64,000 bases of DNA from Patescibacteria group bacterium (GCA_028714495.1 JAQTMH010000001.1:245036-309035), one strand, 5' to 3'; shown: positions 1 to 41,197, numbered from the stretch's first letter. Numbers and translations: made by a program. The notes: a model not told the origin generated them from the letters alone.

Positions 1-38
1 AACGCCTCATCTAAATAGCTCCTAGCTATTGGGGCGTT

Positions 39-848
39 TTATTGGCTCAGAAGTCTATCAATAATTTGCCGAAATGTGTCTTCCGGAATCACGCCGGGGA
101 TGACGTAGCCGTTGATAACAAAGGTGGGCGTCCCAGTTACGCCAATGGCTAAACCAGCCTCGACGTCTTCTTCAATGTCAGCGGCGTATTTGTCCGATTC
201 AAGGCATTTTTTGAATCGGTCCGTGTCCAGTCCGGACTGCAGGGCGTAGTATTCCAAATCAACCGCTGCTAGTTTAGCTTGATTTTGGAACAGCCGGTCG
301 TGAAATTCCCAAAATTTGTCCTGCTCATTGGCGCAAGCCGCCGCTTCAGCCGCCCTCTCGGCGTCAGGATGAATATCCGTACCTGGATAATCCCGATAGA
401 CAAAATAAATCCGGTCGCCATATTCACTCATCATTTTCCTCACTGTGGGAAAGGCTTCGCCGGAGAACGGGCATTGAAAATCAACAAACTCGACAATCTC
501 CACTTTTGCTTTGGTCGAACCAAAACCCGGATCATCGGCCGTTAGCAGTTTGTTCATATCAACAATCGTGACCTGTTCAGTCGTATCCTGGGCGCGCTGG
601 CCGAGAACGCTTAGGGCATACCAGGAAACACTGACGATAAATAAAACAATTAAAACGCCAAAAATTATCAGGGAGATGCCCCACCAGGTGCGCCACCAAC
701 GGCGTTGAGGTAAGGGTTGAGGCGCCGGTATTTTTGTCTTATTTGTAATTGGCAAGTTAGCCATATCTTTATCATAACCCGAATTCAAAAATAGTAAAAG
801 TTTTCCGAACCAAAAAACCGTCTCTCTTAAACTCGAGACGGTTTTCAA
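39..848 (-). CDS. DsbA-like thiol:disulfide oxidoreductase (thioredoxin fold), membrane-anchored; true start probably the internal Met (MANLPIT..., ~764)
   Basis: Translation contains CPFS (CxxC-type) motif in 'FVDFQCPFSGEAF' and a C-terminal 'GTPTFVINGY' DsbA-like cis-Pro region. An N-terminal hydrophobic helix precedes the domain. A hairpin terminator-like palindrome lies downstream at 1-40. Confidence 0.7.
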   Translation of the reverse strand: MKTVSSLRETVFWFGKLLLFLNSGYDKDMANLPITNKTKIPAPQPLPQRRWWRTWWGISLIIFGVLIVLFIVSVSWYALSVLGQRAQDTTEQVTIVDMNKLLTADDPGFGSTKAKVEIVEFVDFQCPFSGEAFPTVRKMMSEYGDRIYFVYRDYPGTDIHPDAERAAEAAACANEQDKFWEFHDRLFQNQAKLAAVDLEYYALQSGLDTDRFKKCLESDKYAADIEEDVEAGLAIGVTGTPTFVINGYVIPGVIPEDTFRQIIDRLLSQ

Positions 849-1115
849 ATATCCCCTCTCTGGGCCGGCAAAGGCACACGGGGTTATACCAACTGCGGGA
901 CCCGAAACGCCTGAGGAGAGAGCAACAAGCGCTCAAATCGCTGCAATCGGATCCGTAGACACTTTGCCGGCTTAGAGAAAGGACCTTTTCTGAATCAACC
1001 AGTATAATACTAATAAATTCGGAAAAGGTCCCCTGTACCGGAAGCGCAAAGCGCGACTGGTACAGGGGGTTATGGCTTCTCCTCAAAAGCCATCAGACTT
1101 GACGAACCAGCCTCA

Positions 1116-1745
1116 TCAGCACGCGACCCAGGCAACACCTGAATCGCCTTGTTCACGTTTCGTTCTGACCAGAAAGTTCTTGATCGCTTGGGCCTGCTTC
1201 AGCGAAGCTTGGTTAACGGCTACCACCTTCAGGCAATAGCCAAACGACTCGTGGGGTATAATCTGGCTGGTTACTTCGATGTACCAGCCACAGCCCCAGA
1301 TGCGGAAATTCCGCGGATCAGCCAGCGACAGCCTAATGCTGACACAGCTATCACTCAAACTCACGGTTTCGGACGCATCAGCCGTCAGCTCATCCAATGT
1401 CTGAAACGCAACCTGATCAGCTAGAGGATCTTTCGTCGGTACACGGCCCTGGGTCAGAAACTCAGCGGTGGCCTGAAGCGAGTAGCGCTCTCCAAAGAGC
1501 ATCGTTACATCGCCGCCACGTGTGGGCGCGATGTAGGCCCGCCTGCTGTAGCTGGTCGCCGGCAAACCAAGTTGTCTCGCCTGCACATCAAAGAGCTGGT
1601 TTAGCAACTCGGTCGCCTCGCTGGTGTCCATTTCGGTCTGATACACGACCTGGATCTGGGTCGTCTCTGGCTCGCCAGAGCAACCGAAGATCAGCGAAAA
1701 GGCTAGAGCCAACACGACGCCGCCAAACAACCTCATTATCTTCAT
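1116..1745 (-). CDS. hypothetical lipoprotein
   Basis: N-terminus MKIMRLFGGVVLALAFSLIFGC has a signal peptide plus lipobox (IFGC). No recognisable domain. Confidence 0.5.
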   Translation of the reverse strand: MKIMRLFGGVVLALAFSLIFGCSGEPETTQIQVVYQTEMDTSEATELLNQLFDVQARQLGLPATSYSRRAYIAPTRGGDVTMLFGERYSLQATAEFLTQGRVPTKDPLADQVAFQTLDELTADASETVSLSDSCVSIRLSLADPRNFRIWGCGWYIEVTSQIIPHESFGYCLKVVAVNQASLKQAQAIKNFLVRTKREQGDSGVAWVAC

Positions 1746-1919
1746 CCAGAACCTCCTTGTCCACTGAGAAACGTTCCCGAGCTCTCCACATCTTGGAAAG
1801 CCCTAACCTTCATATTCAAAATCGGGTTATGAATGAGCTTTTTTCCCTTCTGAATCTACGAAGCTTTTCTTCCTAGACTCGGAAAGGTGAAGGTGTTTTA
1901 GCTAAAGCTAGGTACACCC

Positions 1920-2951
1920 TCAAGACCTGTTCAATGGAAAGTCAAGAGCTGAGAAGACCTCTCGCCACCGGGCAAGAAACGCCTCCCATTTGTCCAACGG
2001 CACCTGGACCCTTGTTCTCAACCGACCGCTCACACCATCCGGAAGATGGACGCGGAGATCAATCTTGCCCCACCAGTCCCTCGGCAATTCGACATAGACT
2101 TGCTCGCCCATGTGACCGATGCCAATGACGCAGAGCAAGACGTTTCCGTGACGGCGCAGAACCTCATATCTCCAGGTGGGGAGAGAAACCTTGATGCCCG
2201 AATGGGCGGCCGGCCGAAGGTCAGAGAGCACCACCCGACCTGGCAGTTCTATGGCTTCATCAGCCAGCTGATAAGCCGCCAGTTTGGCCACGTAACATGC
2301 GGCTGAGACCTCGTATTTCAACTGATGGATCGTATCGCTGGCCTGGCAACCGCTGGCTACCCAGTCAGCAATGGTCTGGTAGACCCTCTGTTTCTCCCGC
2401 AGATGTCCTTCGGGGTCCATACTGAAATACGGTATTGTGTTGAGGCTTTCAACCAGAAGTCTGCCTACCCGACTCAGCCTAGATATTCCGTTGCTGGATC
2501 TCTCGCTGATGTCGGCATCATCCTCCAGACCCAGATACCAGGCACCGCAAGCCTTGAGAAAACCCAGGAAGCCGTCGTTGTCGGCGTGAAAAAGCACCAC
2601 GCTGACACCAGACTTCCTCCATTCATCACGGGTAATCAGATGGGCACACGAAGGCGCCGCGATTCGGTCAACCAGGCGGATTGCTTCGCCGAATCTCTGA
2701 CGCAATCCTTCGGCATTCTCCTTTTCAACTTGAACCTGGTTCAAATGATGGTCAGCGAAACACGCTAGCCGATGACCAGCCGCGATCAGTTGATCAATCA
2801 ACGCGCACATTTCAGTTGACGGTGCCAAGTCAATGCAGGCGAACCGGCTGCTGGGAGGCAGAGAGGCGACTAACTCTAGGCGATCCTTTTCCGTGATATA
2901 CGGCTGGATCGCGATGCCACGCACGCCGTTCAAATTCACCACCAGAACCAT
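1920..2951 (-). CDS. hypothetical protein (343 aa)
   Basis: Long ORF in the same orientation as its neighbours. Contains 'FADHH' and 'HADNDG' strings but in an order unlike DHH phosphoesterases. Function unknown. Confidence 0.45.
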   Translation of the reverse strand: MVLVVNLNGVRGIAIQPYITEKDRLELVASLPPSSRFACIDLAPSTEMCALIDQLIAAGHRLACFADHHLNQVQVEKENAEGLRQRFGEAIRLVDRIAAPSCAHLITRDEWRKSGVSVVLFHADNDGFLGFLKACGAWYLGLEDDADISERSSNGISRLSRVGRLLVESLNTIPYFSMDPEGHLREKQRVYQTIADWVASGCQASDTIHQLKYEVSAACYVAKLAAYQLADEAIELPGRVVLSDLRPAAHSGIKVSLPTWRYEVLRRHGNVLLCVIGIGHMGEQVYVELPRDWWGKIDLRVHLPDGVSGRLRTRVQVPLDKWEAFLARWREVFSALDFPLNRS

Positions 2952-3108
2952 GCGATCCCTCCGTTTCTTCGGCTGATGCCTCTATGGTTTTTGACAATGA
3001 GCTATCTTCTTCTGAACCCGCGAATCGTTATGATTCCCAGATTCAGGGAAAGGGGCGAACACCAGACGATATTCGCCCAATGAACAGACCTTCGTATGGC
3101 CAGTGTTG

Positions 3109-3576
3109 CTAGTAGTTCGACAGCGTCAAGACGACGCCGTCACCAGCCGGGCCTGATGTGGCCGTCTCGCCATACGCCTCAATCGTGTAGACGCCGGCTA
3201 CAAGCTGGTAGCCGATGTTGCCCTGGCTGTAGCCGAGCGGCCCAATCGTCATCGGCGCCTTGGTGAATGGGTTGTTCGGCAACACACCGCCGGTCCATTG
3301 CGACACGTCATTGAGCTGTTCCAATGTCGGATAGACGTCATCGTTCCGGACCGCAAAGTCCTCGACCACGAGCTGCGTCGAGTGGCAGTTCGCCTTGACA
3401 CTGCCTTCCTTGGCGCGGTTCACCATCGCGATGTAGTCCGGGATGGCGATCGCCGCCAGAATCCCGATGATGAGGACCACAATCATCAGCCCGATCAGAC
3501 TGAAACCATGGGAATGAGAACTCTTCATGTCCAGCTCCTCCTCTTTGAAACCGACTCTTTCTTCCGCCACTCTCAT
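3109..3576 (-). CDS. type IV pilin / pseudopilin (prepilin-type N-terminal methylation domain); likely start at internal Met MKSSHSHG (~3528)
   Basis: Translation has 'GFSLIGLMIVVLIIGILAAIAIP', the class III prepilin leader/cleavage motif G|F(T/S)LIxLMIV. Position +5 is Gly instead of the usual Glu. Confidence 0.7.
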   Translation of the reverse strand: MRVAEERVGFKEEELDMKSSHSHGFSLIGLMIVVLIIGILAAIAIPDYIAMVNRAKEGSVKANCHSTQLVVEDFAVRNDDVYPTLEQLNDVSQWTGGVLPNNPFTKAPMTIGPLGYSQGNIGYQLVAGVYTIEAYGETATSGPAGDGVVLTLSNY

Positions 3577-3771
3577 CTATCAGCCAACAGCCAACTCCGC
3601 AGGCCAATGCCTGACAGATAAATCTGGCTTGTCAATCTTAACGCGTGACCCGATGTTTGATGCAAAGAGCAATTCTTCCTCTGAGCGCTCAATCGTTTAT
3701 TGCGCAATCAAGAACTCGGAGAAAGGGGGTATTGCCAGTCAAACCAGCAAAATACCCCACGACCAGGCGAA

Positions 3772-4050
3772 TCACTGCCCTTGGTTAGGCAATTGAAGGC
3801 GGGAGATCAGGTGGTTCCTGTTGATCAACCAGTAGAAGATCATGGGTATTGTCAGGCAGAGCGACACCCCCGCATAAAATAGGAATGGTGGTTTACCTGA
3901 CAGTAAGTATGACAGCATGCCGAGTGTTGCCACAATGCCAGCGCCGACAACCTCATTCCAGATGGGCTTGGGCCAGCGCCACGACGCGTAGAGCCAGCCA
4001 GCCACCGGAGCTGCCAGCAACGCAATGAGATGGTACAGAGTCATAGACAC
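3772..4050 (-). CDS. small integral membrane protein (92 aa), hypothetical
   Basis: Three hydrophobic segments. Same strand as the neighbouring genes. Confidence 0.35.
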   Translation of the reverse strand: MSMTLYHLIALLAAPVAGWLYASWRWPKPIWNEVVGAGIVATLGMLSYLLSGKPPFLFYAGVSLCLTIPMIFYWLINRNHLISRLQLPNQGQ

Positions 4051-4266
4051 CTCCTGGATCGAGCCTGTTGCGAAAAGAAACTGTCAAAAGAGCTATCCTT
4101 CTCTGAAGTTATTATGGTACCTCTCCATAAAGTCGAGGAATAATAAATTCAGAGAAAGAGGGCAGAACCAGTTAAGCTTGCGCTTTTCCAGTTCTGCCCA
4201 AGGGGCAGTACCGGAACCCTAGAACCATTACGGTTCAGGGGACTGGTACTGCCCTGTGTTGTGAAG

Positions 4267-4899
4267 CTAGGACTCGGCGATGAAGTGGGCGTGGCTGCAG
4301 CGCTGGCATTGGGCCTTGGCGAGTGCCGCGTCTACTGCCGGACGATACCGAATGAGCGACTCGGGGAAAGCCTCGAGTGAGCCCTGGTAGAGCGTCTTGG
4401 CCACGATTCTGGCCAGGCGCTCCGCCTCGTCCTTCACCACCTCGCGCGACTGCACCCGAACCCGCGACCCCGTAGAACTGAGCCTGAGCTCGATCACGAC
4501 GATTCCGCCGGGCACCGAGAAGAGCGCGTGCGGATCATCCTGCTCCCGGCCCACGAAGAATGGCCGAAGCGCCTTGCCGGAGAAACCGCAGATGATCGTA
4601 GCCTGGCCGATCTCGCCGAGACCGCCGCCCTCCTCCGCAATCTGGATGAGCGGCGGCTGTCCGTTGACGCAGGACGGCATCTGGAAGACGCCATCCTGCC
4701 CCTCGACCTGCGGCAGGTCCACGACGACACCGGTGCGAGTCTCGTGAACCTCCACATCCTCCGCCCCCTGGTCCCAGAGCTGCGCGAGAATGGCTTCCCG
4801 ATTGCCCTGGGCGAGTTTCACGATGAGCTTCATCATGGCGATACCCCTTTCTGCTCGAACACCTAAACCCTTGGCAACAATTCCTTGTTGCCAGTTCAC
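4267..4899 (-). CDS. hypothetical protein (probable start at MKLIVKLAQGN...)
   Basis: GC-rich ORF of 210 aa. No recognisable motif. Confidence 0.4.
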   Translation of the reverse strand: MNWQQGIVAKGLGVRAERGIAMMKLIVKLAQGNREAILAQLWDQGAEDVEVHETRTGVVVDLPQVEGQDGVFQMPSCVNGQPPLIQIAEEGGGLGEIGQATIICGFSGKALRPFFVGREQDDPHALFSVPGGIVVIELRLSSTGSRVRVQSREVVKDEAERLARIVAKTLYQGSLEAFPESLIRYRPAVDAALAKAQCQRCSHAHFIAES

Positions 4900-5109
4900 A
4901 CCTGTCTGGGGCTGCTAGCTTCACTAATTGTAAAGAACCAACCCCCACACCAAATTCTTCAGAATAATTATTGAAAAATTTGGTGTGGGGGAACAAACTA
5001 TTCTACCTCAACTCTCGAAAAAAATCAAGGGCTGGAGTAGAACGGGGAAGAAGTGATTGGCTGCTTCCCCGTCAATGTGTCTCACTGTACGAGTAGGTCA
5101 TTTCACCTC

Positions 5110-5406
5110 CTAGGCCACCAGCAACAAAGGGTCGCCGGAAAAGGCCTGGTTGATGAGTGCGCGGATAGCGTGCTCATGGTGAATTCGACAAACATCCAGG
5201 TGAAGTATTTCTGCCACCTGGGGCACAAGATTCTCGATCGGGTATCCCCGATACCAGACCCACCCGTCAAGGTAGGCCTTGAGGACCGTTGCCGCTTCAA
5301 GCTGCGACCTGATGCGCATATCAAGCCCCCCTTCTGTGGAAGAGCCTTCCTCTGAACCTTGGACCATGATTGGTTCAAAGCTCGGAAGAAGTGGGGGCTC
5401 ACACAC
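5110..5406 (-). CDS. small hypothetical protein (~98 aa)
   Basis: ORF fills a 530-bp gap between flanking genes on the same strand. No motif recognised. Confidence 0.3.
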   Translation of the reverse strand: MCEPPLLPSFEPIMVQGSEEGSSTEGGLDMRIRSQLEAATVLKAYLDGWVWYRGYPIENLVPQVAEILHLDVCRIHHEHAIRALINQAFSGDPLLLVA

Positions 5407-5427
5407 AGTGTAAGCCCCCTCAAAAGA

Positions 5428-5913
5428 TCACTGTCGGTACCAGAGCTTGACAGTCAACCCTGGACAGATCATGTTCAGCTTCCGCACAGAGTCCCGGAAG
5501 TTCATGGCCGCCTCCCTTGACGGCCGCGGCTTGAAGCCAATGACCGCGTAGACTTCCTGATCAGTCATCTTTGGACCGGCTATCTTGTTGATATCCGAGC
5601 CCCAGGCGTCGTGAACCCAGACTACCAGACCCATGAACTTGATCTGGAAGGTAGGGTCAACCTCGAGCTTCTTCATGTCCACGCTCGGGTCAGTGCCGAG
5701 CCGAACAATGTGTACGACTTCAAAGAAGTAATCGTACAGCTCATACTTGCATCCTTCGAAGACAAAGGACGCACAAGCCTGTGTCCAGTCATCGACTGGC
5801 ACATTGATGCTGTCCAGCTGTGACGCTGTCAGCTCGATAGTGACGGTTTCCGCTCCTGCGTACGCCTGGCAAAATGCCAAGGTCGCGACCACCAAGATCA
5901 CCAAACTCTTCAT
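5428..5913 (-). CDS. secreted hypothetical protein (161 aa)
   Basis: N-terminal signal peptide MKSLVILVVATLAFCQAYAGA. Confidence 0.5.
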   Translation of the reverse strand: MKSLVILVVATLAFCQAYAGAETVTIELTASQLDSINVPVDDWTQACASFVFEGCKYELYDYFFEVVHIVRLGTDPSVDMKKLEVDPTFQIKFMGLVVWVHDAWGSDINKIAGPKMTDQEVYAVIGFKPRPSREAAMNFRDSVRKLNMICPGLTVKLWYRQ

Positions 5914-6169
5914 TTTAGCCTTCCTCCGTTTGGTACGGGCTGGTCATCGTTGGCCACCAGCAAGCCAGTGTCAAAGAGCATTCCTTCCTCTGAACCCTCA
6001 ATCCGCTATTCCCGATTAATATCAGGAGTCTTGGGATTAAGAGTTCGGAAGAAGTTCCCAGCACCGGAAATCCCGAAGGATAACTAGTGCTGGGAGCCCC
6101 GAACCGGAACCCTGTAACGAAGCGCTTCGCGCCTGGTTCAGGGGACTGGTTCGTGGAAGAAAGAGCAGA

Positions 6170-6556
6170 TCACAGATGATAGGCAACCGCACCCTGCTGT
6201 GGAATGGCCCACCAGCAGTCAACCTCGAATCGGTGACCATCATAGTTCCAGGCAGGCACCCAGACCTTGTATCGCGAGTAAACCTTCCCTGAATCAGTCG
6301 TCAGGTGATGGCACGCCCGGATGATGATCCCCCGGGCTTCAGCATCTCGGCTGAAGGCGCTAGGAAGGATGTAATCATTCTTGTCCTTTGGGGTCGCCGC
6401 GTCGGCATTGAACACCCAGACCGTGTCGCCGACGGCGAATTCAGTCTTGGCGAAGTTGATGTAGCCGGGCTCACTCGGTTGAGCCAGTTGAAGAACATCA
6501 GCCGCCGAGGAAGAAACCACGGCCATCGCGACCAGAAGAACCACTAGCCACTTCAT
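6170..6556 (-). CDS. small secreted protein, paralog family (EPG...VGDxVWV motif)
   Basis: Start MKWLVVLLVAMAVVSSSAA has an RBS GGAGGG 6 nt upstream (reverse complement of 6557-6566). Shares 'EPGY...FAVGDTVWVFN' with the 7414..7827 product. Confidence 0.55.
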   Translation of the reverse strand: MKWLVVLLVAMAVVSSSAADVLQLAQPSEPGYINFAKTEFAVGDTVWVFNADAATPKDKNDYILPSAFSRDAEARGIIIRACHHLTTDSGKVYSRYKVWVPAWNYDGHRFEVDCWWAIPQQGAVAYHL

Positions 6557-6671
6557 GATACCCTCCTGACGCATAGCGTCTGTCTTGAACCAGGCTGATT
6601 GGATTGACTTCAATCCATACCAACCCAGTTACTAACTTGTAAAGAGCTCCGCTTGAACCTGTCTTTAGTGG

Positions 6672-6830
6672 GGAACCCCGAACCAATTGCGCTAAAGCGC
6701 TTCCGGTTCAGGGCAAGCCCCGAACCGGAGTCCCGTCGAATGACAGAACGACTGGTTTGGGGTAAAGACAGGCTCGAGTGAAGCCCTGACCCCATACCGA
6801 AGCTTTAGCGCCTGGTACGGGGTCAGGGGG
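6672..6830 (+). repeat. compound nested-hairpin element (three tandem units), family 1
   Basis: Units of outer stem CCCCGAACC/GGTT(C/T)GGGG or CCCTGACCCCATACCG/CTGGTACGGGGTCAGGG around central palindromes GCGCTAAAGCGC and AAGCTTTAGCGC. Related copies at 976-1070, 4095-4258, 6054-6160 and 22300-22440. Confidence 0.6.
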
Positions 6831-7010
6831 TGATTTCTTGGCAGCTACGAGAGTCGAACTCGTCATCCTTCCTTGGAAGGAGCCCGAACACCCGGACGGG
6901 CTGACCACCGGGCCACTTTACGTCGGGAAGCCGCCTGATTTATTTCGGCAAGGAGATATATCCTCTCCCGTAACCCGAAATCTTGTTTCGGGTGGTGTTA
7001 AAAGGACGTT

Positions 7011-7085
7011 TCTCTTCCGAACCCGCGAACCTAGATGATTTCCAGACTCGGAAAAGTGGAGGAAGGGCAGGACTTCCTCCGAAGA
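7011..7085 (+). repeat. repeat family 2 (TTC(T/C)GAACCCGCGAACC...GGAGGAAGGGCAGGACTTCCTCC)
   Basis: Second copy at 9100..9172. Partial copy at 3007..3050. 3' part forms hairpin GGAGGAA-gggcaggac-TTCCTCC. Confidence 0.7.
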
Positions 7086-7153
7086 TGTTCAAAATGTGCG
7101 TTGGAGCTCTCGCGCCTGCCTTGTTCCGAAGAACAACGCGAGAGGATGCGGGT

Positions 7154-7456
7154 TTAGAACCAGAAGGTGATGCACCACACGAAGCTGGCAAGCATAGCCA
7201 CCAATCCCGTGCTGGTCTGGAGCCTCTGATCAGGGGCTTCGTTCAAAGACCATGTCCAGAGCCGAGTCGCCAGCGCGACACCCCCGGCAGACCCGAGCGT
7301 GCAGAACCCGAGCAGAGCATTCCTGAACCACATCATGATTCCCTCCTCGCAGCACATTGCTGCATCAGTTTCCATAAACCCCTTGGCGGACTCGCTATGA
7401 GCCGCCGCGACAACTACCAATACAACGCAAGGAAGTAGCGAGAGTAGGCTGCCCAC
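7154..7456 (-). CDS. possible small membrane protein (100 aa)
   Basis: Hydrophobic N- and C-terminal segments. Weak call. Confidence 0.25.
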   Translation of the reverse strand: MGSLLSLLPCVVLVVVAAAHSESAKGFMETDAAMCCEEGIMMWFRNALLGFCTLGSAGGVALATRLWTWSLNEAPDQRLQTSTGLVAMLASFVWCITFWF

Positions 7457-7827
7457 CTTTGAGGCAGGTTATACGCCTCATAGAGGTTGCCAAACTCTGC
7501 TTCCTCCTCGAAGTCCTCTCCCGACAGGGAGACAGCAACCCTGTAGAACCAGTAATCACCATACTGGAAGATCGCCACAACCCTTGCCAACGCGTACTCC
7601 TGCATGCAGGAATCGTCCGCGCCAGGGTACAACCCGCCGTAGGCGCATTCAGTTTCACCTACGTTCACCCACACCGAGTCACCGACCTCCAGCGGCTTCG
7701 AGTTGAAGACGCCGTAGGGGTAAAAGCCGGGCTCTACGTTCTGACCAAACGCCAACGGCGCCAGGACAGCAAAGAGTGAGGCAACGGCCAGACAGATCAG
7801 CACCCAACAGTACGTTCGATGCTGCAT
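7414..7827 (-). CDS. small secreted protein, paralog of 6170..6556
   Basis: Start MQHRTYCWVLICLAVASLFAVLA is preceded by AAGGAGGT RBS (reverse complement of 7833-7840). Motif 'EPGFYPYGVF...EVGDSVWVNV' is shared with the 6170 gene. Confidence 0.55.
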   Translation of the reverse strand: MQHRTYCWVLICLAVASLFAVLAPLAFGQNVEPGFYPYGVFNSKPLEVGDSVWVNVGETECAYGGLYPGADDSCMQEYALARVVAIFQYGDYWFYRVAVSLSGEDFEEEAEFGNLYEAYNLPQRWAAYSRYFLALYW

Positions 7828-7979
7828 TTTGGTACCTCCTTGATGGTTCGAGACCTCTAGGAGAATGATATTATCAATGTAATGAGCCTTTCTCCTACCT
7901 GAGCGCTGCAGTACAGAAGTACTGAAACGCTCGGGTAGGACCCGATGCGCACCAGAGGTGGCACGCATCGGGATGAACG

Positions 7980-8819
7980 TTAGAATGAGTAGGAGAATGA
8001 AACTGAACACTCGGCATGCTTTTCACGCGTGTCATAGTACGCGCGAAGAAAGCACTTCGGCGCGTACTCCGCAGTTGCGCCGACAAGCCATCGCGAGCCG
8101 CGCGCATCGCCGCAGTCGTACTGGGCATAGAGACGCGCCCAAGGGCTAACCCTCACGTAGTTCTGCAGGAAGTACGGAGCGCGTCCCTCCTGCTCCGGAT
8201 CAAACCAGCTTGCGCCGATTGCCGGGTTGAAGAACCGCATGGGTTCCCAAGTCGCGATTGCCGCGTACCCGATGTTCCTCTCCCAGCATGCCTTGACGGA
8301 CGCTGGGGCTCCGGCGAGCGAATCGGTCACCGCCACGTACGCCGCCCAGTGCCGGTCGTCTTTGAAACTGACGACCGTAGTCGTGAACGAGCTAACGATG
8401 TGCGTCGCGGACACGCCGAACTGATTTGACGAGAACTTGCAGTTCGCGTCAGGGTTCCGTGTCAGACGAAGCTCCTGAGGACCAGGGAAGACGGACTGGA
8501 TTGGCAGAGCTTGCTGGCCAATGGCAACAGCAGTCCTGCCGAATTCAGTCACGAACGTCTTCATCGCATACGCCTTTGTCAGTCGCACGCTGGTGACGCC
8601 CGTGCCGTCGATTTCCGCACGGAAGAACAGGGCGTGTGCCTTGTCTTCCTGACAGAGACCCGCCCGCAGAATGCCGAGCGTGTAGGCATGATCGTTGCTC
8701 CGGTCCGGCATGGACACGGAGCCGTACACGTAGTTGCTCGCACCGGCGTTCGCAGCCAGTACCAACGCGAAGATGATCGCGAACAGCATGGCGACTTTGA
8801 ACCGACAACCGGAAATCAT
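7980..8819 (-). CDS. secreted beta-rich protein, outer-membrane-protein-like (C-terminal ...FSYSF)
   Basis: Signal peptide MISGCRFKVAMLFAIIFALVLAANAGAS. Alternating hydrophobic pattern. Terminal Phe is typical of beta-barrel OMPs. Confidence 0.5.
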   Translation of the reverse strand: MISGCRFKVAMLFAIIFALVLAANAGASNYVYGSVSMPDRSNDHAYTLGILRAGLCQEDKAHALFFRAEIDGTGVTSVRLTKAYAMKTFVTEFGRTAVAIGQQALPIQSVFPGPQELRLTRNPDANCKFSSNQFGVSATHIVSSFTTTVVSFKDDRHWAAYVAVTDSLAGAPASVKACWERNIGYAAIATWEPMRFFNPAIGASWFDPEQEGRAPYFLQNYVRVSPWARLYAQYDCGDARGSRWLVGATAEYAPKCFLRAYYDTREKHAECSVSFSYSF

Positions 8820-8885
8820 TGATCCCCCCTTGTTTCTGCCGTTTTGGTAGACCGTTAGCGCACTTCAAGGAAGCCGCCTAAATCT

Positions 8886-9031
8886 CTCCACACCGAACTG
8901 GAGGTGAGTTTGTCCATCTTTGAGCCGAAGCTCGATGGACCGGCTGAACTTAGTGAAGGCGTTGAGTTGTTCACCCGACGCGATCACCTCGTCTAGCCAC
9001 TCTCTTCTCCCCTCCATGTCGGTGCGGAGAA
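8886..9031 (+). repeat. 143-bp direct repeat, copy 1
   Basis: Near-identical (one internal mismatch) to 10311..10455. A diverged third copy lies at ~10625..10770, sharing the core TTTGAGCCGAAGCTCG. Confidence 0.85.
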
Positions 9032-9238
9032 ACGGTAGTCGTTCCCCGACTTGATCGGGGAACCTAGAAATTCTACTTAGTGTGTGTAATAAATAACTTC
9101 TCCTCTTCTGAACCCGCGAACCGAATTGATTCCCAGGTTCGGAAGATAGGAGGAAGGGCAGGACTTCCTCCAAGAACGAATGAGCATAGTAATTCTCACA
9201 CCTGCCTGCGAGCTAAGCTCGATTTGTGAGAGGCGAGA

Positions 9239-10069
9239 TCACCGAACGTAGCAGTGGTACTCCTTCCAGAGGAAATCCCTCTCCTTCTGGGTGAGCCCGA
9301 GCTCACGCCCGGCGATATTGTACTCGTTGATGGCCCAAGACAATCGCAGTATGGCCCAGCCATACTGTTCCATATCCTGAAGGGAACGGGCATAGACGAG
9401 CACGTCCCGGCAGTCCTGGACCAGCTTGGCCCTGAACTGTTCCGGACTCAGGCCATAGTCCTGGATGGTCGTCCCACTGGCGTTCACCAGGTGGACGATT
9501 TCGCGACCGACGTCCCAGGGGTCATCGAGCATGATGGTGCCCTCGCCCTGTCCGATGTCATGGCCGCGGCGGGCGGAAATCGGCTGGTCCAAGCACTGGA
9601 TCAATTCGGTCGCGATGGTACGTCCGAGCCGGTTGTGTGCGGAGTGCACTTCGCTTGCGTTGACCCCGACGTCTTCCCAGGTGACATTCCAGTCACCGAG
9701 ATTGCGCATCGCCGATCCGACTTTGCGATACTGATCGAAGCGCTGGTCGAGGACTCCGTAGGAATCCTGCGCCATCTTCACTTCCTGCTCCCAGCTCGGA
9801 GACAGGAAGCCAGTGAAGACCTGCCGCATCTGCTCGGCGTACTGCGTGCGCTGTTCGAAAGCCTGGCGAGCTTCGTTGAGGGACACCTGTGCGGCCTTCA
9901 GGTTCTCGGCCTGCTTGTTCAGCGTGGCCTCCTTGACCGCCAGCTCCTCGCTCCATGAGTTCAGGTTGGCCTTCTGGTCGCCGAGGTGATGGAACCCGAC
10001 CAGCGTGATGACCAGAAGCACCGCCCAGACGATCCCGACTGCTCCAACGATTCCGATCCGCTTCTTCAT
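9239..10069 (-). CDS. membrane-anchored coiled-coil protein, hypothetical
   Basis: Start MKKRIGIVGAVGIVWAVLLVITLVG with AGGAGG RBS. Long Q/E/A/K-rich coiled-coil segment follows. Flanked by 143-bp direct repeats. Confidence 0.5.
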   Translation of the reverse strand: MKKRIGIVGAVGIVWAVLLVITLVGFHHLGDQKANLNSWSEELAVKEATLNKQAENLKAAQVSLNEARQAFEQRTQYAEQMRQVFTGFLSPSWEQEVKMAQDSYGVLDQRFDQYRKVGSAMRNLGDWNVTWEDVGVNASEVHSAHNRLGRTIATELIQCLDQPISARRGHDIGQGEGTIMLDDPWDVGREIVHLVNASGTTIQDYGLSPEQFRAKLVQDCRDVLVYARSLQDMEQYGWAILRLSWAINEYNIAGRELGLTQKERDFLWKEYHCYVR

Positions 10070-10310
10070 GACCTTCGGTCCTCCTTTGACAGCTTGACCT
10101 GCCGTCTGACATACCCCCATGCTTCATATCCGAGACCGATCATCCCGACCTTTCGACTTCTCTCAAGATCAGGACGCTCCCGCAACCCAGCACCACGTAG
10201 GGCGCCGGGCTCTGGGAGTATTTAATTGTCAAAGTTCTGGTAGCGCTCTCATTTGCAGGAATAACCATCCTTCATCCTTCATTCTTCCTTCTGAATTCTT
10301 AATTCTAAAT

Positions 10311-10455
10311 TGGCTTCTCTCCACCGAACTGGAGGTGAGTTTGTCCATCTTTGAGCCGAAGCTCGATGGACCGGCTGAACTTAGTGAAGGCGTTGAGTTG
10401 TTCACCCGACGCGATCACCTCATCTAGCCACTCTCTTCTCCCCTCCATGTCGGTG
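10311..10455 (+). repeat. 143-bp direct repeat, copy 2
   Basis: See copy 1. The two copies flank the 9239..10069 gene. Confidence 0.85.
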
Positions 10456-11252
10456 CGGAGAACAATCCTATTGCGTATCCCGAAATCTTGTTTCGGGTTT
10501 GTTGTAAAGAACGTGGTCTCTCAATAAGCAGAATGCATTATTTCCCTGCCAGCTCGAGGCCGGTGGACTCGGCCCTTTTGCATGGTTTGTGACCGCCTCC
10601 GGTCCTCGAATTGGCAGGGAAACAATTTGTCTAAAAAGCACTGATCTGGAGGCGAGTCCAAACGCCCTTTGAGCCGAAGCTCGGGCGCTCAAACTGAATT
10701 GTGTTGAAGCCATCGAGGCATGGCCCGATGAGATCAACTCCTTCAGCCTCCTCCCTCCTCCATATCAGTGCTATTTAACGTCGTTCATGGTCCGCCTTGG
10801 GCGGACGGCAATTTAAAATGGGTGACAGTTTGCTGCTGTCAAACCCGAGAAGAGAGTTTTCGACAGAAACAAACCACCACCCATTGATTATGAATGCCGG
10901 TTTTCCAACCGCAATTTGAAGCGATTGGCTCTCTCCTCATTTATTTTATGTAATGTGCTCGCGAACTCTCCCCACAAGATTCTTGAGCATAACTGGAGAG
11001 TATAGCGTACCAAAAAAGACCTGTCAAGACCCCATGAGATGATATTGGCTAATGTAAGCCAAAATATTTTATCAATTAATTTATTTATTGGGTTTTTTAA
11101 CATATTACTACGTAGGCGAGGTTGATCAACCTCGCCTGCTTTGGAAGAGCTTATTTACTATGGAATAGTTGCGCCGGGGTGGTTCTACGCGTTTACTTAC
11201 AAAAAAAACTGTGATAAAGTGACCGCGAAAGTGTTGTTTCGCGACTTTCTTT

Positions 11253-12445: not shown

Positions 12446-12532
12446 GCCGCGGTGGCGGAACTGGTATACGCGACGGACTTAAAATCCGTTGGAGGAAACT
12501 CCATGAGAGTTCGATTCTCTCCCGCGGCACCA
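12446..12532 (+). tRNA. tRNA-Leu (anticodon UAA), type II with long variable arm, CCA encoded
   Basis: Cloverleaf checked by hand. Acceptor GCCGCGG pairs CCGCGGC. Anticodon stem ACGGA/TCCGT with loop CTTAAAA. Variable arm GGAGgaaaCTCC. T-loop TTCGATT. 3' end ACCA. Confidence 0.85.
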
Positions 12533-12573
12533 GCTGGGCTGAAAAAAGACAGCGGGGAGAACGTGGAGTTTAT

Positions 12574-12906
12574 ATGCATTATGTGTACTTTCTTCTTTCT
12601 CCATTTTCTAGTAAAACATACGTTGGCCGAACAAATTCTCTCGTCAGGAGAATTGCCGAACACCGAAATGGTAAATGCTGGACTACGGTTCGAATGGGAA
12701 AATTCATAGTAATTGGCTACGAGGCCTTTATGTCAAAAAGTGATTCTTTTAGACGCGAGAGGTACTTCAAAACATCAAAGGGCAGATCAACCCTACGATT
12801 AATGTTCCGAGATAGCATCGCCACGACACTTTTCCCTAACCACGCTGGGTTCGGGGTACCTAGTACCGGAACGAAGCGACTGGTGATGGGTAAAATCCCA
12901 AAATAA
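12574..12906 (+). CDS. GIY-YIG nuclease-domain protein (small, stand-alone)
   Basis: N-terminus 'HYVYFLLS...KTYVGRTNSLVRRIAEHRNG' matches the GIY...YIG...R...E...N signature. Confidence 0.55.
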   Translation: MHYVYFLLSPFSSKTYVGRTNSLVRRIAEHRNGKCWTTVRMGKFIVIGYEAFMSKSDSFRRERYFKTSKGRSTLRLMFRDSIATTLFPNHAGFGVPSTGTKRLVMGKIPK

Positions 12907-19130: not shown

Positions 19131-19718
19131 CTACGCTGACGCTTCGCTGGCTAGCGTAACGGACTCGCGAACGGCCAGAATGTAGACTCCACTCCCCCAC
19201 TCACAATCGAACGTTCGCCAGCTCATGTTGGTGGCGCCGTAGAAGTAGACGGTTGCGGTCTCGAACCTTGTGCCGTTGACTCGGGCGCGGCCGCAGAAAG
19301 CAGCCAGTTTGTTCTTGAAGTTTCCCCCGTTACACTCGATGAACGTTTCGGACTCGGCACGATCGGGTAACCTGAGCCCCTGGCCGCTGAACTTATCGAT
19401 GACGGCCTTCGGAGCGGTCGACCGAGGCAGTTCGATGATTTCGAAGACAACTTCGGCCGCCCCCTGTCTCTCGACAGGAAAGTCGGAAGCGACGATGTCT
19501 TCAGCAACGCATCCATCACGCCGCATCTTGCCCACGGTTTTCCAGCGCAGATCGCCGTAGTTCACCGTCAGCCTAAGCTTGATCTCGAAGGGATTTTCGC
19601 CCCTCAAGAAACAAGCGAGCTGCTCGGGAGTCCGAACCCCATGTTGCATTTTGAGAGCAAGGTCCGCAAACATGCCAAGGACATTCCCCGGCACTTCACC
19701 GATCATTTCGAGCTTCAT
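19131..19718 (-). CDS. hypothetical protein (in high-GC islet)
   Basis: 195-aa ORF. Local GC is clearly above that of the flanks. Confidence 0.4.
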   Translation of the reverse strand: MKLEMIGEVPGNVLGMFADLALKMQHGVRTPEQLACFLRGENPFEIKLRLTVNYGDLRWKTVGKMRRDGCVAEDIVASDFPVERQGAAEVVFEIIELPRSTAPKAVIDKFSGQGLRLPDRAESETFIECNGGNFKNKLAAFCGRARVNGTRFETATVYFYGATNMSWRTFDCEWGSGVYILAVRESVTLASEASA

Positions 19719-23009: not shown

Positions 23010-26000
23010 ATGCTAAGAGTTCTTCACCGACAATATCGTAAAAATGTCACATGTGACCAAGGCGGCTCACGCATACGCTCTTCGCTTTATTTTGCTTTTG
23101 GTATCGGGGTGGCTATATCAGCGCTTGTGGCTATCGGATTAACGGTCTTTGTGCCTCACCCAGTAGTCGCTGACACGACTGCCACGCTCGAACAGAACGC
23201 GTTTCGTTTTTATGTCGATAATGATCTTGTCCAGCCAGCTGATCCCTGGCCAGCCGGCGCGACCGATCTGGCAGAAAATGCGGCGATCACCACAGCGGAC
23301 GTTCCGCCAGATGACGCTAATCTCATCCGTATGCGCATGTCTCTTGGTATCACTGGCGACACCCTGGCTGCTGGATCGCAAGATTTTAAATTACAATATG
23401 GCGAGGGAACGGACTGCGCGGCGATCGTGAGCTGGAATGATGTTGGCGCGGCCAGTTCGGCGACCATCTGGCGAGGTGAATCAGACACGAACCCAGCTGA
23501 TGGTACCACGATATCTTCAGCCTTACTCTCGACCGCTGGAACGCTACAGACATATGAAGAGCAGAATAATTCCGCTCTCAACCCAAATCAAGCGACTGCC
23601 GGGCAATCAGCCGAGTGGGATTGGCTCGTGGAAAACAACGGCGCTCTCCACGATACGACCTACTGCTTCCGCATGGTCAAAAGCGACGGTACCGCGCTCA
23701 ATACCTATACCCAGTATCCAAAAATCCAGACGGAAGCAACAGTTTTTGACAGCACCCTTGAGGGCGGCAATGGCGCGAGCTTCACCAAACCATACACTGG
23801 CGATGCCTCAAAAATCAGCTTTGCCAGTGAACTTGATGGTGGTGGACCCTTGGGGCCGTGCACTGACGCCCGTAGGCAGAACTGGTTTTATTTCTCAATG
23901 AGCAACGCCCTAAATCAGACACTCACAATAAAATTAATCAACGCCATGGCCGGCAGCAATGAAAATACTGATTGGGTTGATCATAAACCTGTCTATTCTT
24001 ACGATCAGGTAAATTGGTATCGGATCAGCAGTACCGGCACTGTGAGCGGCAGTGATATGATCTATACCTTTCCCGGCGCTGGAATTGAATTTACCTCCGA
24101 TACTGTCTATATCGCTCACGGCATTCCCTACACCTACACTGATTCCGAAAACGACCTTACGACCTGGTCAGCCTCTCCCTATGTAACCGTCACTGATATC
24201 GGCAATTCGGTTCAAAGTAGAATGATGCACCTGGTAACGATCCAGGACACGGCCTCGCCCATTACTGCGGCCAATAAAAAAGTGTATTGGTTTATTGCCA
24301 GGCAGCATGGCATGGAACCTATGGGAAGCTATGCCATCCAGGGAGTCATTAATTTCTTGATTGGCTCAAGTGACGAAGCCAAGCTTATGAGGCGAACTTC
24401 GATCTTTAAAATTATTCCGATGATGAATCCTGACGGTGCCTATCAGGGTTGGACCACTGCCAACGCTGAATATTGCAATGAGAATCGGGACTGGACTGAT
24501 TTAGTGCCGAACCCCGCCACCGAAACTGATGAAGTTTATAATGCCCACTATGCCATTCATGATTGGATGACGAATGGCACCCCAGCTGATGCTGAAGTAA
24601 TAACAGATGTTCATACCCGCTGCGCCAATCCGGGTGTTTACACGGGAGACGCAGTCTACGATGGCAACAGAGAAAATCCTTATGAAGTACTGTGGAAAAT
24701 TCTAGACGGCAATGATCATGATGATGAATTTACGTACTCAGGCACGGCCGGCCTCTTTAACGTGGAGATGTATGACCAATATTACCCCACCTGGGGAACC
24801 GAGGTCTTCAATACCGAGGGAACAACTTACGATTTTGTCGATCATACATACCCGACCGCGGCTACTGCGGCTGCCTATGAGGTTTCTTATTTAAAAACAA
24901 TTTGGGCTATGAGGGAGACCAGCTCAAGTGTTTTTCTGTTAACTCAAGTTGATCCGACCGGCGCCACTACTCCGCCCCAATATACCGTTGTCGGCTCACC
25001 CAGTCAGTATTTTGCCGTGTTCAATAATGACAAAGGCGGCGGAATATCGGATTGGTATGACCGGGAAAATGATCAGTATTTACTCAATAATCTTGTTGAC
25101 GCTGATTCAGTTCTTGACCCGATTGACTGGAACGACGGTTCGGCGGTGCGATCATTGATCAGTACTACCAACGCAACTTTTTCTGTAGCAAATAATTCTG
25201 GAAACCGAACTGAATTTAGCTATTCGGGCGAGTTGGCTGGAATCTCGGGCGAAGACTACATTCTCAATCGAGTAATCTGGGGTGATGGCCGGATTTGGAC
25301 AAAGTTTAGTCTAACTAATACAACCGGTTCAACTATCGACTGGGGTGAGATGAAAAACTCCGTGAATATTGATTTTGCCGAAGCGGCGAATTTCACCGCC
25401 AGTCGCGACAATTCCGATGATACCCCCACTCCTGGGACAGACAATTGGTGGGGGATGCTTGGCACTGGTGCCATGAAATCTTCGGCGATTGCCCATTATG
25501 TCGGACAGTCCGGCGGCTGGACCTACGATACCTACAATACTGCCTCTGACGCTACCTATGGAAAATCCAACTGGTATTCGGATGCTGACGGACCGACTTT
25601 AACTGATGGCAGCACAATCAGCACAACCGTGAGCTATCAGGTCAGGCCAGACACTGATGTCATGAGCAATGAAGCGGCTATTGACGTGTATCGAAACGAT
25701 ATTGCCAGTCCGGATACGCCGACCATGACCACTGGCACCTTTTCGAGCTTTGATAAACAAGAGGGTGGCCTCTCTTTTGCCGCCGACAATAACCGAGTCA
25801 TATTTACTTACACCAACGCGGACACGGTCACGAAAAAAAAGCCGACTTACACCATAACCGACTACGCTGCCTCAACCGCTCCGGTCTTAAGCGTCAATAA
25901 TGCCTTCCTCGATGGCGAGGATGGTTCGGCTCATACCGGAACTACCCATACGAGCACAACCTACACCTCGTCGGTTGATACGACAAACGATATCGCCTAT

Positions 26001-39946: not shown

Positions 39947-41197
39947 CTACTGCCAGATCGTCGCGCTCGCATAAATTCCCTGGGCTGTTTCGTCGAATCG
40001 AAACGATGTCTCCAGCCGCAGATAGTCGACTTTCTTCCGCTGCATCGGGTCAGGCGTATTTGTCACGTGGATTTTGCATCCGAGAGTGATGGCTTTCCAG
40101 TCCTGGCCAGGGTCGTCGAGCGTGCGCGGACGAGAACCTGGGACCAAATCAGTGGCTGTCTGATAGACTAGACCGAGATAGGGGTTGTGAACCGGGCCGA
40201 AGACCCGGGGCCAAGTACCATATAGTGCGTACTGGGATTCCCGAAGCTCCGCTTCCATGCCCGCTTCGATATCGACGGTGGTAAAGGTAGCAGTCACCAG
40301 TCCAAAATCCACTGCGTCGTATCCCCGGCCCACGCCGAGCGTGCCAAAGTCTCGGTTTCGCACTACGCGTGATCGGCTGAGCGCGCCGTGAGCAAAGGAA
40401 TTAGCGATGGCGGAACTAACCGGCTGGTTCAAGGCACGCCCCCAGAGAGTGGCAATGCCTAGATAACAGGTTGCCTCGGGCTTCTTTCTCATGACAAAGA
40501 GCGCTGCTGGATTAGCGCCACGATTCTCAACATCGGCATAACGCGCGATCCCGCCGATCCACGTCGGCGAATCCTCCTGGTTCACCGCTGATCCAGCCAG
40601 AGCGAGTATTCGTGGGGCGCTTGCTTGCCAATCCAGGACAGAAATATACCGTTTTTCTTCGATCGGGCCGGCGTGTGATACTGCTTTCTCATTGGAGGCT
40701 CCCAAGTATAGTCCGAGGTTGCCATGCTGCACCCGCGCCGTACCGTCGAGATGCACAGTTTCATCAGCATCGCGTTCAGCCGAGAAACCGAGAGCGAAGT
40801 TCTTCCGCTCGTATGAAGGATACAGGCCAAACGCCCAGTAATCTTCGCCGAGCAAATACCGGGCGATCGAACCGGCCAGCTTGAGCTGAACCGGCGCGAG
40901 CGGCGCGCAGACCCCGAAATCAAGCGACTCTTCGTCAAGCTCGAGTCCGTATACTGGCGACACGCGGTTGTCGGCGTTCGAATACTCCAAAGCGAGTAGC
41001 CGCGTCCGATCCGGCGAATCCACATAGAATCGGAATCCGCCGTTCTTAATCGTCCCAACCTGTTCACTCCCGAGGTACCGATCCAGTTGACTGGCCTCGA
41101 CCGTGAATCGGTAGGGCACGATTGACTGGGCTGAAATCGGTTGGACAGCCAACACGCAGAAAAACGCGCACACCGCAAAAGCTAAACCGTATCGCAT
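39947..41197 (-). CDS. secreted beta-rich protein, possible outer-membrane barrel (in high-GC islet with fbaB)
   Basis: Signal peptide MRYGLAFAVCAFFCVLAVQPISAQS. Alternating hydrophobic strands. Aromatic residue near the C-terminus. Confidence 0.45.
   Translation of the reverse strand: MRYGLAFAVCAFFCVLAVQPISAQSIVPYRFTVEASQLDRYLGSEQVGTIKNGGFRFYVDSPDRTRLLALEYSNADNRVSPVYGLELDEESLDFGVCAPLAPVQLKLAGSIARYLLGEDYWAFGLYPSYERKNFALGFSAERDADETVHLDGTARVQHGNLGLYLGASNEKAVSHAGPIEEKRYISVLDWQASAPRILALAGSAVNQEDSPTWIGGIARYADVENRGANPAALFVMRKKPEATCYLGIATLWGRALNQPVSSAIANSFAHGALSRSRVVRNRDFGTLGVGRGYDAVDFGLVTATFTTVDIEAGMEAELRESQYALYGTWPRVFGPVHNPYLGLVYQTATDLVPGSRPRTLDDPGQDWKAITLGCKIHVTNTPDPMQRKKVDYLRLETSFRFDETAQGIYASATIWQ

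Follow-up and report, generated by a model that had tools for sequence, protein, structure and literature searches.

Stem-loops between cistrons, repetitive extragenic palindromic and bacterial interspersed mosaic elements (REP/BIME) and leaky terminators shape expression in pilus and transport operons, such as pap and malEFG of Escherichia coli. On a larger scale, homologous recombination at conserved flanks is the documented mechanism of replacement flexible genomic islands in aquatic prokaryotes (PMC4033161). In what follows, I consider a locus that invites comparison with both, found in a stretch of 64,000 nt (hereafter the window, meaning the whole stretch at its full length) from a metagenome-assembled genome (MAG) of the Patescibacteria, or Candidate Phyla Radiation (CPR) (GCA_028714495.1, JAQTMH010000001.1:245036-309035): a run of 12 co-oriented minus-strand genes, lettered B to M, that occupies positions ~850-10,800 of the window and whose head reaches 11,027. 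The Patescibacteria are abundant and have tiny genomes, and most of them live as episymbionts; little is known of how they recognize and hold their hosts, and most of their surface proteins carry no annotation. The interpretation I favor, with moderate confidence, is that the locus is a lineage-conserved flexible island of the replacement type for envelope proteins, seated in a fixed slot between a dsbA-hydrogenase cluster and a NUDIX-spoU-tRNA-Leu cluster, and punctuated by RNA-level signals that would double as recombination anchors.

The dsbA-NUDIX slot and its exchanged reading frames

A sequence-only reading of the window had taken positions 1 to 10,800 for an accessory, cassette-like block of small exported proteins, all encoded on the minus strand and richer in GC than the rest. 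The strand call holds for every one of the 13 plausible genes in that interval, and the windowed GC profile that had been suggested as a check bears out the composition: 2-kb windows stand at 0.54-0.59 between 1,000 and 11,000 and at about 0.46-0.50 alongside, and genes B-M have a mean GC of 0.578 with a third-position GC (GC3) of 0.62-0.83 (mean 0.72), compared to 0.490 and 0.54±0.07 for the 45 other genes of the window (Mann-Whitney p = 6e-6 for GC and 7e-7 for GC3). The rest of the window is itself not uniform, and ordinary genes outside the block for an OPT transporter, an M29 peptidase and a DeoC aldolase also reach a GC3 of 0.65-0.74; the genes for IF-2, NusA, HU and trigger factor, which are expected to be highly expressed, are not GC3-rich, and expression-linked codon bias therefore offers no explanation for the block. 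Both limits of the block had to be moved. The DsbA-like gene at its left end does encode a thioredoxin fold by Pfam, as had been proposed, but with a GC3 of 0.51 it is compositionally core and stands outside the island as its left flank, a position that it also takes beside the islands of L007, L011 and L013 (introduced below); on the right, the structured region runs past 10,800 to a promoter at 10,999-11,027. Beyond dsbA lie genes of the Fer4, FAD-binding, HypC and NiFe-hydrogenase types and to the right of the island lie NUDIX, SpoU, tRNA-Leu and GIY-YIG genes, and the large open reading frames (ORFs) of the remaining window that were checked by Pfam are all housekeeping. Because the island junctions recur in the independent Logan contigs L001 and L004 and in three other MAG contigs, an assembly chimera was rejected.

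The comparison among strains, also suggested beforehand, could be made with L007, the sister strain (GCA_028717285.1), whose flanks are 97-99% identical to those of the window; flanks and most intergenic modules (described in the next section) lie in the range of 95-100%. Protein identity is 96-99% for L, K, I, C and B, 84-86% for H, G and D, 56% for E and 27% for F; M and J are replaced as whole ORFs, the former by an unrelated gene of 185 aa and the latter by a pilin-like gene of 187 aa, F and part of E are exchanged as well, and two extra genes of 86 and 116 aa are inserted exactly at the module between D and C. The breakpoints between the strains fall at 10169, 9172, 7336, 7121, 3958 and 3697. 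The two gaps that flank F retain 95% and 98% identity while the ORFs differ, which makes the intergenic DNA the conserved scaffold and the ORFs the units that are exchanged.

The same slot is occupied in the window, in L007 and in two more species, L013 (Patescibacteria) and L011 (CAYJKP010000002.1), with gene content that is divergent or different between relatives. In L011 and L013 it holds a co-oriented array of small genes without Pfam matches, most of whose products are membrane or secreted proteins, and the GC content is again raised (L011: slot 0.54-0.63 vs 0.41-0.49; L013: island genes 0.55-0.67 vs flanks 0.44-0.56). Counterparts of the island genes are limited to B and M, both distant, and between L011 and L013 themselves DsbA is 93% identical and M only 27%. 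Given that slot position and high GC are kept across species whose flanking proteins are 43-74% identical, the island is not a recent foreign insertion; it is old, fixed in position and continuously re-stocked from a gene pool of Patescibacteria type. Homologues of gene C (40-48% identical) occur on three further contigs, L026-L028, in conserved five-gene sub-arrays of Pfam-less genes beside TsaE, and in L026 a type IV pilus ATPase also stands next to the array. Distinct composition, repeats that within the window are specific to the block, ORF replacement in L007 and the arrays of other species thus uphold the earlier suggestion of an accessory-type, cassette-like island for putative envelope proteins, as opposed to ordinary core genome.

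The intergenic modules and the RNA at the island head

Structured repeats had also been reported in nearly every gap, and they are there: a common module sits in 9 of the 12 gene-to-gene gaps, and the 143-bp repeat, the 69-nt repeat family, the GC hairpins and two CCCGAAATCTTGTTTCGGG hairpins (6975-6993 and 10479-10497) are all real. Read on the gene strand, the module begins after the stop codon with one or two GC hairpins, one type of which has conserved ACCAGUC...UUCCGGU shoulders; directly after the GC hairpin comes a pyrimidine tract, YUUYYCYGA, that serves as the 5' arm of a second hairpin, the inverted repeat (IR), with a loop of 20-50 nt and a 3' arm of UCAGARRAAG. The module always abuts the hairpin of the upstream gene and is in this way tied to the 3' end of that gene, the next start codon being 26 to >400 nt away. 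Across 21 copies of the second hairpin (window, L007, L013 and L026), compensatory change is seen in 8 of 12 pairs and the paired cells make up 87%, with one position being a conserved C.A mismatch; this pairing was reached by none of 500 shuffles, and slid controls gave 40-59%. The excess of G.U pairs over A.C (38 against 6, plus 12 at one conserved position) favors the gene strand, and hence RNA, as the form in which the module folds. The motif GGTTCAGAGGAAG (<=2 mismatches) is found 7 times in the window, vs 1.6 expected, and 6 of these 7 are inside the block; a strict scan for paired arms returned 5 elements, each of them within the block and on the gene strand, whereas the remaining 53 kb had none. 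The gaps of L026 carry the hairpin + IR module too, so it is not restricted to the dsbA-NUDIX slot. A consensus scan of the block showed no enrichment of canonical promoters or terminators, with counts equal to those of shuffles, and an upstream-ORF reading of the GCTCTTTG box 3' of the IR was rejected, as its start codons are not conserved.

The 143-bp repeat corresponds to a direct repeat of 147 nt (8885-9031 and 10316-10462, 98% identical), whose two members, c and b, are copies of an RNA of ~145 nt; a further copy, a, is only about 66% identical to them and yet forms the same three-way junction. The covariance model, built from 10 copies after pattern scans of genome and metagenome collections, recovers 25 copies on 13 contigs, single or in tandem and up to four in a row, and scores 5-6 times lower on the reverse strand. 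Among 22 copies, 94.9% of cells pair (a figure somewhat inflated, as the alignment was fitted to the covariance model), 22 of 36 pairs are compensatory, and no shuffle out of 500 reaches these values, slid controls giving 32-50%. Independent of the model, a further 7-bp stem covaries in at least eleven sequence versions, every one of them fully paired, and encloses a near-invariant NNGC-UUCG-GCNN hairpin and an AAA bulge. Rfam 15 assigned no family to the block, the leader, the J-I gap or a distant RNA copy, and only tRNAs pass the gathering threshold in the window; at E <= 1-10, the 145-nt RNA, the leader and the modules drew only chance-level miRNA and snoRNA matches. Reading the 147-nt repeat as a small ORF was rejected, as the diverged copy stops at codon 7 with its fold kept, and two of the four matches from the genome scan (L009, Rhodothermales), together with one from metagenomes (L025), gave no score with the covariance model and were treated as chance.

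A strong promoter of the TTGACA-17-TATACT type and a conserved leader of about 130-200 nt precede the RNA on 11 of the 13 contigs (window, L007, L010, L011, L013 and L016-L021), and no such promoter was found in the DNA examined of the other two, L023 and L024. In the clade of the window, the loop of the leader hairpin, CUCUCUUC, is complementary to an invariant upstream GGAGAGAG; in the window strains and in L019, copies of the RNA bracket the first cassette. L016, L018, L020 and L021 have the promoter-leader-RNA unit directly on the 3' side of an operon of polysaccharide type, which encodes a sugar transferase, GT4-like glycosyltransferases, a Wzz-like protein and a protein of 740 aa; in L020 a further IR-like element and small co-oriented ORFs come after the unit. 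At the opposite end of the island, a promoter-like site for dsbA (TTTACT-16-TATGAT, 798..771) comes just after the terminator at 807-846, and L013 has an equivalent hairpin and T-run ahead of its dsbA.

As a separate observation, L011 and L010 (CAZBMC010000001.1) are both titled 'uncultured Gammaproteobacteria' MAGs, L011 having the dsbA...NUDIX synteny and L010 the promoter-leader-RNA unit; these contigs are probably mis-binned or mis-labelled.

Island products, smaller elements and neighbors

The products of nine of the 12 island genes (B, D, E, H, I, J, K, L and M) have an N-terminal signal-like or membrane segment, in keeping with the small exported proteins that the sequence-only reading had described, but C, F and G are cytoplasmic and fall outside that description. 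Matches to known families are few. Pfam recognized only the prepilin N-terminus of D among B-M, and PHROGs, PADLOC and NCBIfam contributed nothing for the block proteins beyond more pilin-type N-terminal matches for D and some weak ones of coiled-coil type for M; when the island proteins of other genomes were searched as well, the matches were again limited to DsbA, the pilin N-terminus and weak coiled-coil noise. PADLOC, as a search for anti-phage defence, gave 0 matches for 10 block proteins, and a diversity-generating retroelement is not indicated either, with no reverse transcriptase domain in the window by Pfam and a sole long direct repeat that is the non-coding RNA motif. The type IV pilin-like protein that had been recognized is gene D, whose prepilin-type N-terminal cleavage/methylation domain scores 19.3 bits with TIGR02532 (cutoff 16.3) and has Gly at position +5, where Glu is usual. 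The two small secreted proteins that had been called paralogous are I and K; both are predicted to be secreted, but their paralogy is weak, limited to a 46-residue N-terminal part (E = 2e-4). Gene B has no match in Pfam, PHROG, PADLOC or NCBIfam, and homologues 26-29% identical stand in the same place in L011 and L013. Gene L, the protein ending in F that had been called OMP-like, has no homologue beyond its own species among 5.8e9 proteins, and its AlphaFold single-sequence model (no alignment) was left out of the fold search because its predicted local distance difference test (pLDDT) score is 45; Patescibacteria are generally regarded as having no outer membrane. A homologue search gave one close relative for gene M, and by full HMMER its family comprises 14 representatives at E <= 1e-3 among 1.84e9 proteins.

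For gene C, a homologue search gave four relatives, and the DHH and GxGH motifs are invariant in 5 homologues. Its AlphaFold2 (AF2) model has a pLDDT of 84, and the best Foldseek matches are the PAP phosphatase 8a8k, RecJ-Cdc45 7bhi, NrnA 5j21 and PggH 7d62, at E 1e-5 to 1e-3 with template-modeling (TM) scores of only 0.3-0.4; no Pfam (DHH) match was obtained, and a PDB sequence search with the C profile gave nothing meaningful. By motifs and model, gene C is a divergent protein of putative DHH/DHHA1 fold. Besides this divergent protein, a canonical DHH/DHHA1 protein with Pfam matches is encoded elsewhere in the genome (window 58212-59198).

Table 1. Coordinates of the island genes, the left flank and the structured elements (window positions; L007 is the sister strain).
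Feature	Position	Strand	Remarks
dsbA, DsbA-like thioredoxin-fold gene	39..764	-	Pfam Thioredoxin_4 8.5e-29, DSBA 1.9e-21; GC 0.49, GC3 0.51
Canonical intrinsic terminator closing the island	807..846	-	Fold AAAACCGUCUC...GAGACGGUUUU then UU, -16.8 kcal/mol
3' module after B	984..1068	-	ACCAGUC...UUCCGGU-type GC hairpin 1030-1068, then IR hairpin 984-1028
Gene B	1116..1745	-	209 aa, lipoprotein-like; signal sequence ends LIFGC, N-terminal hydrophobic segment
Hairpin + IR module, C-B gap	1845..1918	-	
Gene C	1920..2951	-	343 aa, cytoplasmic, divergent DHH/DHHA1-fold phosphoesterase-like (predicted)
Hairpin + IR module, D-C gap	3006..3078	-	Two extra genes here in L007
Gene D	3109..3528	-	Type IV pilin-like; Pfam N_methyl PF07963 1.8e-6; 85% aa identity with L007 allele
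Hairpin + IR module, E-D gap	3675..3758	-	
Gene E	3772..4044	-	90-aa membrane protein; 3' half replaced in L007
Two GC hairpins + IR module, F-E gap	4097..4254	-	98% identical in L007, unlike gene F
Gene F	4267..4833	-	188 aa, cytoplasmic, GC 0.65; L007 allele only 27% identical
50-bp palindrome, gene F leader	4942..4991	.	Near-perfect stem; fold -33.0 kcal/mol
Sigma-70-like promoter upstream of F	5000..5028	-	TTGATT-17-TAGAAT; consensus match only; best internal candidate
Gene G	5110..5319	-	69 aa, without signal sequence
Hairpin + IR module, H-G gap	5346..5422	-	
Gene H	5428..5913	-	161 aa, secreted (predicted)
Two hairpins + IR module, I-H gap	5984..6160	-	
Gene I	6170..6556	-	128 aa, secreted (predicted)
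tRNA-like element	6838..6935	-	7-bp acceptor stem, long variable arm, T-arm with UUCGACU T-loop; no recognizable anticodon arm
Hairpin + IR module, J-I gap	7012..7080	-	69-nt repeat family
Gene J	7154..7336	-	60-aa membrane protein; 187-aa pilin-like gene instead in L007
Gene K	7414..7827	-	137 aa, secreted (predicted), weakly similar to I
Gene L	7980..8819	-	279 aa, signal peptide, predicted all-beta, ends in F; orphan
RNA copy c	8885..9030	-	Covariance model 154.8 bits; fold -80.6 kcal/mol, z = -7.9
Hairpin + IR module after M	9103..9171	-	Window/L007 homology resumes exactly here
Gene M	9239..10069	-	276 aa, N-terminal membrane anchor and coiled coil; unrelated 185-aa gene instead in L007
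RNA copy b	10316..10461	-	Covariance model 155.1 bits; fold -73 kcal/mol, z = -7.8
RNA copy a	10633..10776	-	Covariance model 105.9 bits; z = -6.7; compensatory changes
Leader RNA	10808..10992	-	Ends in long hairpin + U-tract; fold -33.5 kcal/mol
Sigma-70-type promoter, island head	10999..11027	-	TTGACA-17-TATACT; 11/12 consensus positions; beyond the end first given for the block

Phase variation, the other possibility raised for the block, was not borne out: no homopolymer or short tandem switch appears in the repeat listing or on reading the sequence, where no dedicated tandem-repeat scan was run. The sole hint of it is the 50-bp palindrome directly downstream of the promoter at 5028..5000, the center of which (~20 nt) is inverted between the window and L007 (L007 14182-14231).

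The fold of the tRNA-like element closes the acceptor stem, and its Rfam match to tRNA-Sec scores 17.1 bits (gathering 47) at E 1.4, with only the acceptor, variable arm and T-arm aligned; ARAGORN, relaxed and intron modes included, found nothing credible in it. The element is 93% identical in L007 and, among the loci compared, is present only in the window strain and L007. As a duplication of a tRNA-Leu 3' end it was rejected, being unrelated to the adjacent tRNA-Leu. The latter, a tRNA-Leu(TAA) gene, is followed 42 nt on by a gene with a GIY-YIG nuclease domain (12446-12906), and the pair is also seen in L012/L013.

Elsewhere in the window, two more GC3-rich Pfam-less genes lie outside the island (19131-19718, with its own strong TTGACA-type promoter at 19886, and 39947-41197); each could be a lone representative of the accessory gene pool seen in the island. 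A giant-protein ORF of 2253 aa occupies 23010-29771 (+).

Competing explanations and comparison with known systems

According to the flexible-island interpretation, transcription of the locus would run one way and yield a single long unit or a few of them, and the modules would act on the RNA as leaky terminators or as processing or stability signals that set the output of each gene; as they are conserved between unrelated ORFs, they would also provide the homology anchors for ORF-by-ORF replacement through homologous recombination of incoming DNA. For an episymbiotic bacterium, the pay-off would be a variable cell surface that serves either host attachment or escape from phage or host defence.

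Several points weigh against this interpretation. Some strain breakpoints lie away from the modules, for example the one at the start codon of J (7336); three of the products (C, F and G) are cytoplasmic, without a signal or membrane segment, and what speaks for surface exposure is a set of hydrophobic N-termini and a single pilin motif. The register of the IR arms was set by hand, the module copies are paralogues, so that part of their excess over shuffles may reflect relatedness, and the scan covered only 64 kb of the genome, so that the repeats are not shown to be block-specific genome-wide. As to the persistently high GC3, flexible islands are more commonly AT-rich, and GC3 follows strain divergence only as a weak trend (rho = -0.52, p = 0.08). 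Finally, operon structure, termination and processing are all things that I infer from the DNA.

The most probable of the alternatives, unlikely as I hold it to be, is processive antitermination mediated by RNA, in which the ~145-nt RNA and/or the leader would modify the polymerase in cis, in the manner of HK022 put or the Bacillus EAR element, and carry it through the modules to the terminator before dsbA. This would suit a head made of a single strong conserved promoter, a leader and tandem RNA, with a further RNA copy inside the array, followed by terminator-like hairpins with weak U-tracts in nearly every gap and a canonical terminator only at the end; the unit again precedes co-oriented genes in L019 and L020, and antiterminators consisting of RNA only are known (PMC9378689, PMC8191782). 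However, the unit comes after and not before the polysaccharide-type operon in L016, L018, L020 and L021, the leader of the window clade has a terminator of its own between promoter and RNA, promoter-like sites are also present upstream of M and F, and the RNA shows no similarity to put or EAR and no Rfam match.

A bolder idea, to which I give a low probability, is that modules, leader and ~145-nt RNA together form a dedicated RNA-based operating system of Patescibacteria cassette islands, in one of two forms. Either the RNA would be a cis-acting processive antiterminator or a guide for processing, which would let the polymerase cross the hairpin-punctuated array and fix how much each cassette is expressed, or the modules would be substrates of a cassette-exchange mechanism that is not of integron type. 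If the latter form were true, it would amount to an integron analogue in Patescibacteria, a phylum that is not known to carry integrons.

It is similarly improbable that we are looking at an ordinary, fast-evolving core operon whose repeats are simply the terminators and leaders of the lineage, whose composition is a by-product and which undergoes no significant cassette dynamics. In its favor, every relative seen keeps the slot in synteny, distant orthologues of B and M stand in their places, arrays elsewhere (L026 and L020) have the hairpin + IR module as well, and a few ordinary genes of the window match the island in GC3. What decides against it is the strain comparison, as ORFs that are 27% identical (F) or unrelated (M and J) beside DNA that is 95-100% identical cannot be accounted for by divergence through point mutation; moreover, none of the 45 core genes in the window has the module, and the highly expressed core genes named above lack the GC3 richness.

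An integron-like array, in which the repeats would be recombination sites folded as single-stranded DNA and a site-specific recombinase encoded elsewhere would move the cassettes, I consider very unlikely. The array does consist of short co-oriented ORFs, mostly without homologues and without enrichment of consensus promoters, that alternate with imperfect inverted repeats whose arms are conserved and whose loops differ in length, and genes are gained, lost and replaced one at a time between strains, the two-gene insertion of L007 falling exactly at a module. Against this, three of the four features that define an integron-like system are missing. Scans of the large ORFs by Pfam found no integrase, transposase or other recombinase in 64 kb, as the sequence-only reading had noted of the first two for its block; the R''/R' boxes of attC sites are absent, since 2 of 21 copies have a 5' arm that ends in AAC and C stands fourth, in place of R, in the 3' arm, GTTCAGA; and the Rfam searches reported no attC family, whether or not Rfam holds one. 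Strain breakpoints are not at the 3' arms and the modules stay while the ORFs change, the reverse of cassettes that carry their own attC, and both the excess of G.U over A.C and the UUCG tetraloop speak for RNA. Recent acquisition of a foreign segment, be it a degraded prophage, an integrative element or GC-rich host DNA, is largely refuted and highly improbable, for in spite of the atypical GC and GC3, a tRNA-Leu 1.6 kb from the right edge, a tRNA-like remnant inside and the lack of homologues for most genes, the slot and its high GC are conserved between species that share 43-74% identity in the flanking proteins, such homologues as there are (M and C) come from Patescibacteria MAGs or metagenome contigs with similar arrays, the tRNA-like element is unrelated to tRNA-Leu, no integrase was found, PHROGs gave pilin-type matches only, no DNA match turned up in phage or plasmid collections, and the ~145-nt RNA pattern is absent from the viral contigs scanned.

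Returning to the flexible island, the dsbA-NUDIX slot gives a concrete syntenic handle on how these bacteria deal with their hosts, being one chromosomal site at which genes for pilin-like and other putative envelope proteins are exchanged singly among strains and species, and it could be used in metagenomes as a natural marker of variation in host range or phage pressure. It also brings at least two structured elements supported by covariation and outside Rfam 15, the ~145-nt three-way-junction RNA and the two-hairpin intergenic module, and both could reveal the means by which a reduced genome regulates and varies an accessory array with no mobile-element enzymes devoted to it.

How, then, does the locus stand beside the systems already described? 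The modules share with REP/BIME-type stem-loops their position right after stop codons in co-oriented arrays, their weak or absent U-tracts and their repetition in gap after gap, but REP/BIME elements are dispersed through the genome and the elements here, in the 64 kb seen, occur in the island only; a two-hairpin form with a reused pyrimidine tract and a conserved C.A mismatch is not known among the described REP/BIME forms. The locus is like arrays of integrons, or of clusters of attC sites lacking integron-integrases (CALIN), in its short co-oriented ORFs mostly of unknown function, its imperfect palindromes with conserved bases at the foot of the stem and variable centers, and its polymorphism at the scale of cassettes, and a CALIN needs no adjacent integrase; these arrays, however, have R''/R' boxes (RYYYAAC/GTTRRRY), whereas here the pairing statistics favor RNA of the gene strand. 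The antiterminator RNAs put of phage HK022 (PMC9378689), conAn (PMC8191782) and EAR, the RNA of the Bacillus eps operon, are likewise structured RNAs of about 70-150 nt at the head of or inside a long co-oriented operon with extracellular functions and several terminator-like hairpins, but they have no similarity in sequence or structure to the RNA described here, which comes in 1-4 tandem diverged copies and in several contigs follows the neighboring operon. The closest resemblance that I would draw is to the flexible islands for the cell envelope of Alteromonas, Pelagibacter and Haloquadratum (PMC4033161, PMC4535781), which have the same fixed slot between core genes, content that varies from strain to strain, a bias (predicted in the present case) towards the envelope, atypical composition and exchange for which homologous recombination at conserved flanks is the best explanation. 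In those islands whole multi-gene clusters are exchanged; what is distinctive of the patescibacterial locus is that exchange affects one small ORF at a time, set between conserved structured modules, that its GC lies above and not below that of the genome, that recognizable glycosyltransferase or O-antigen functions do not feature among its genes, and that it has a promoter-leader-RNA head of its own.

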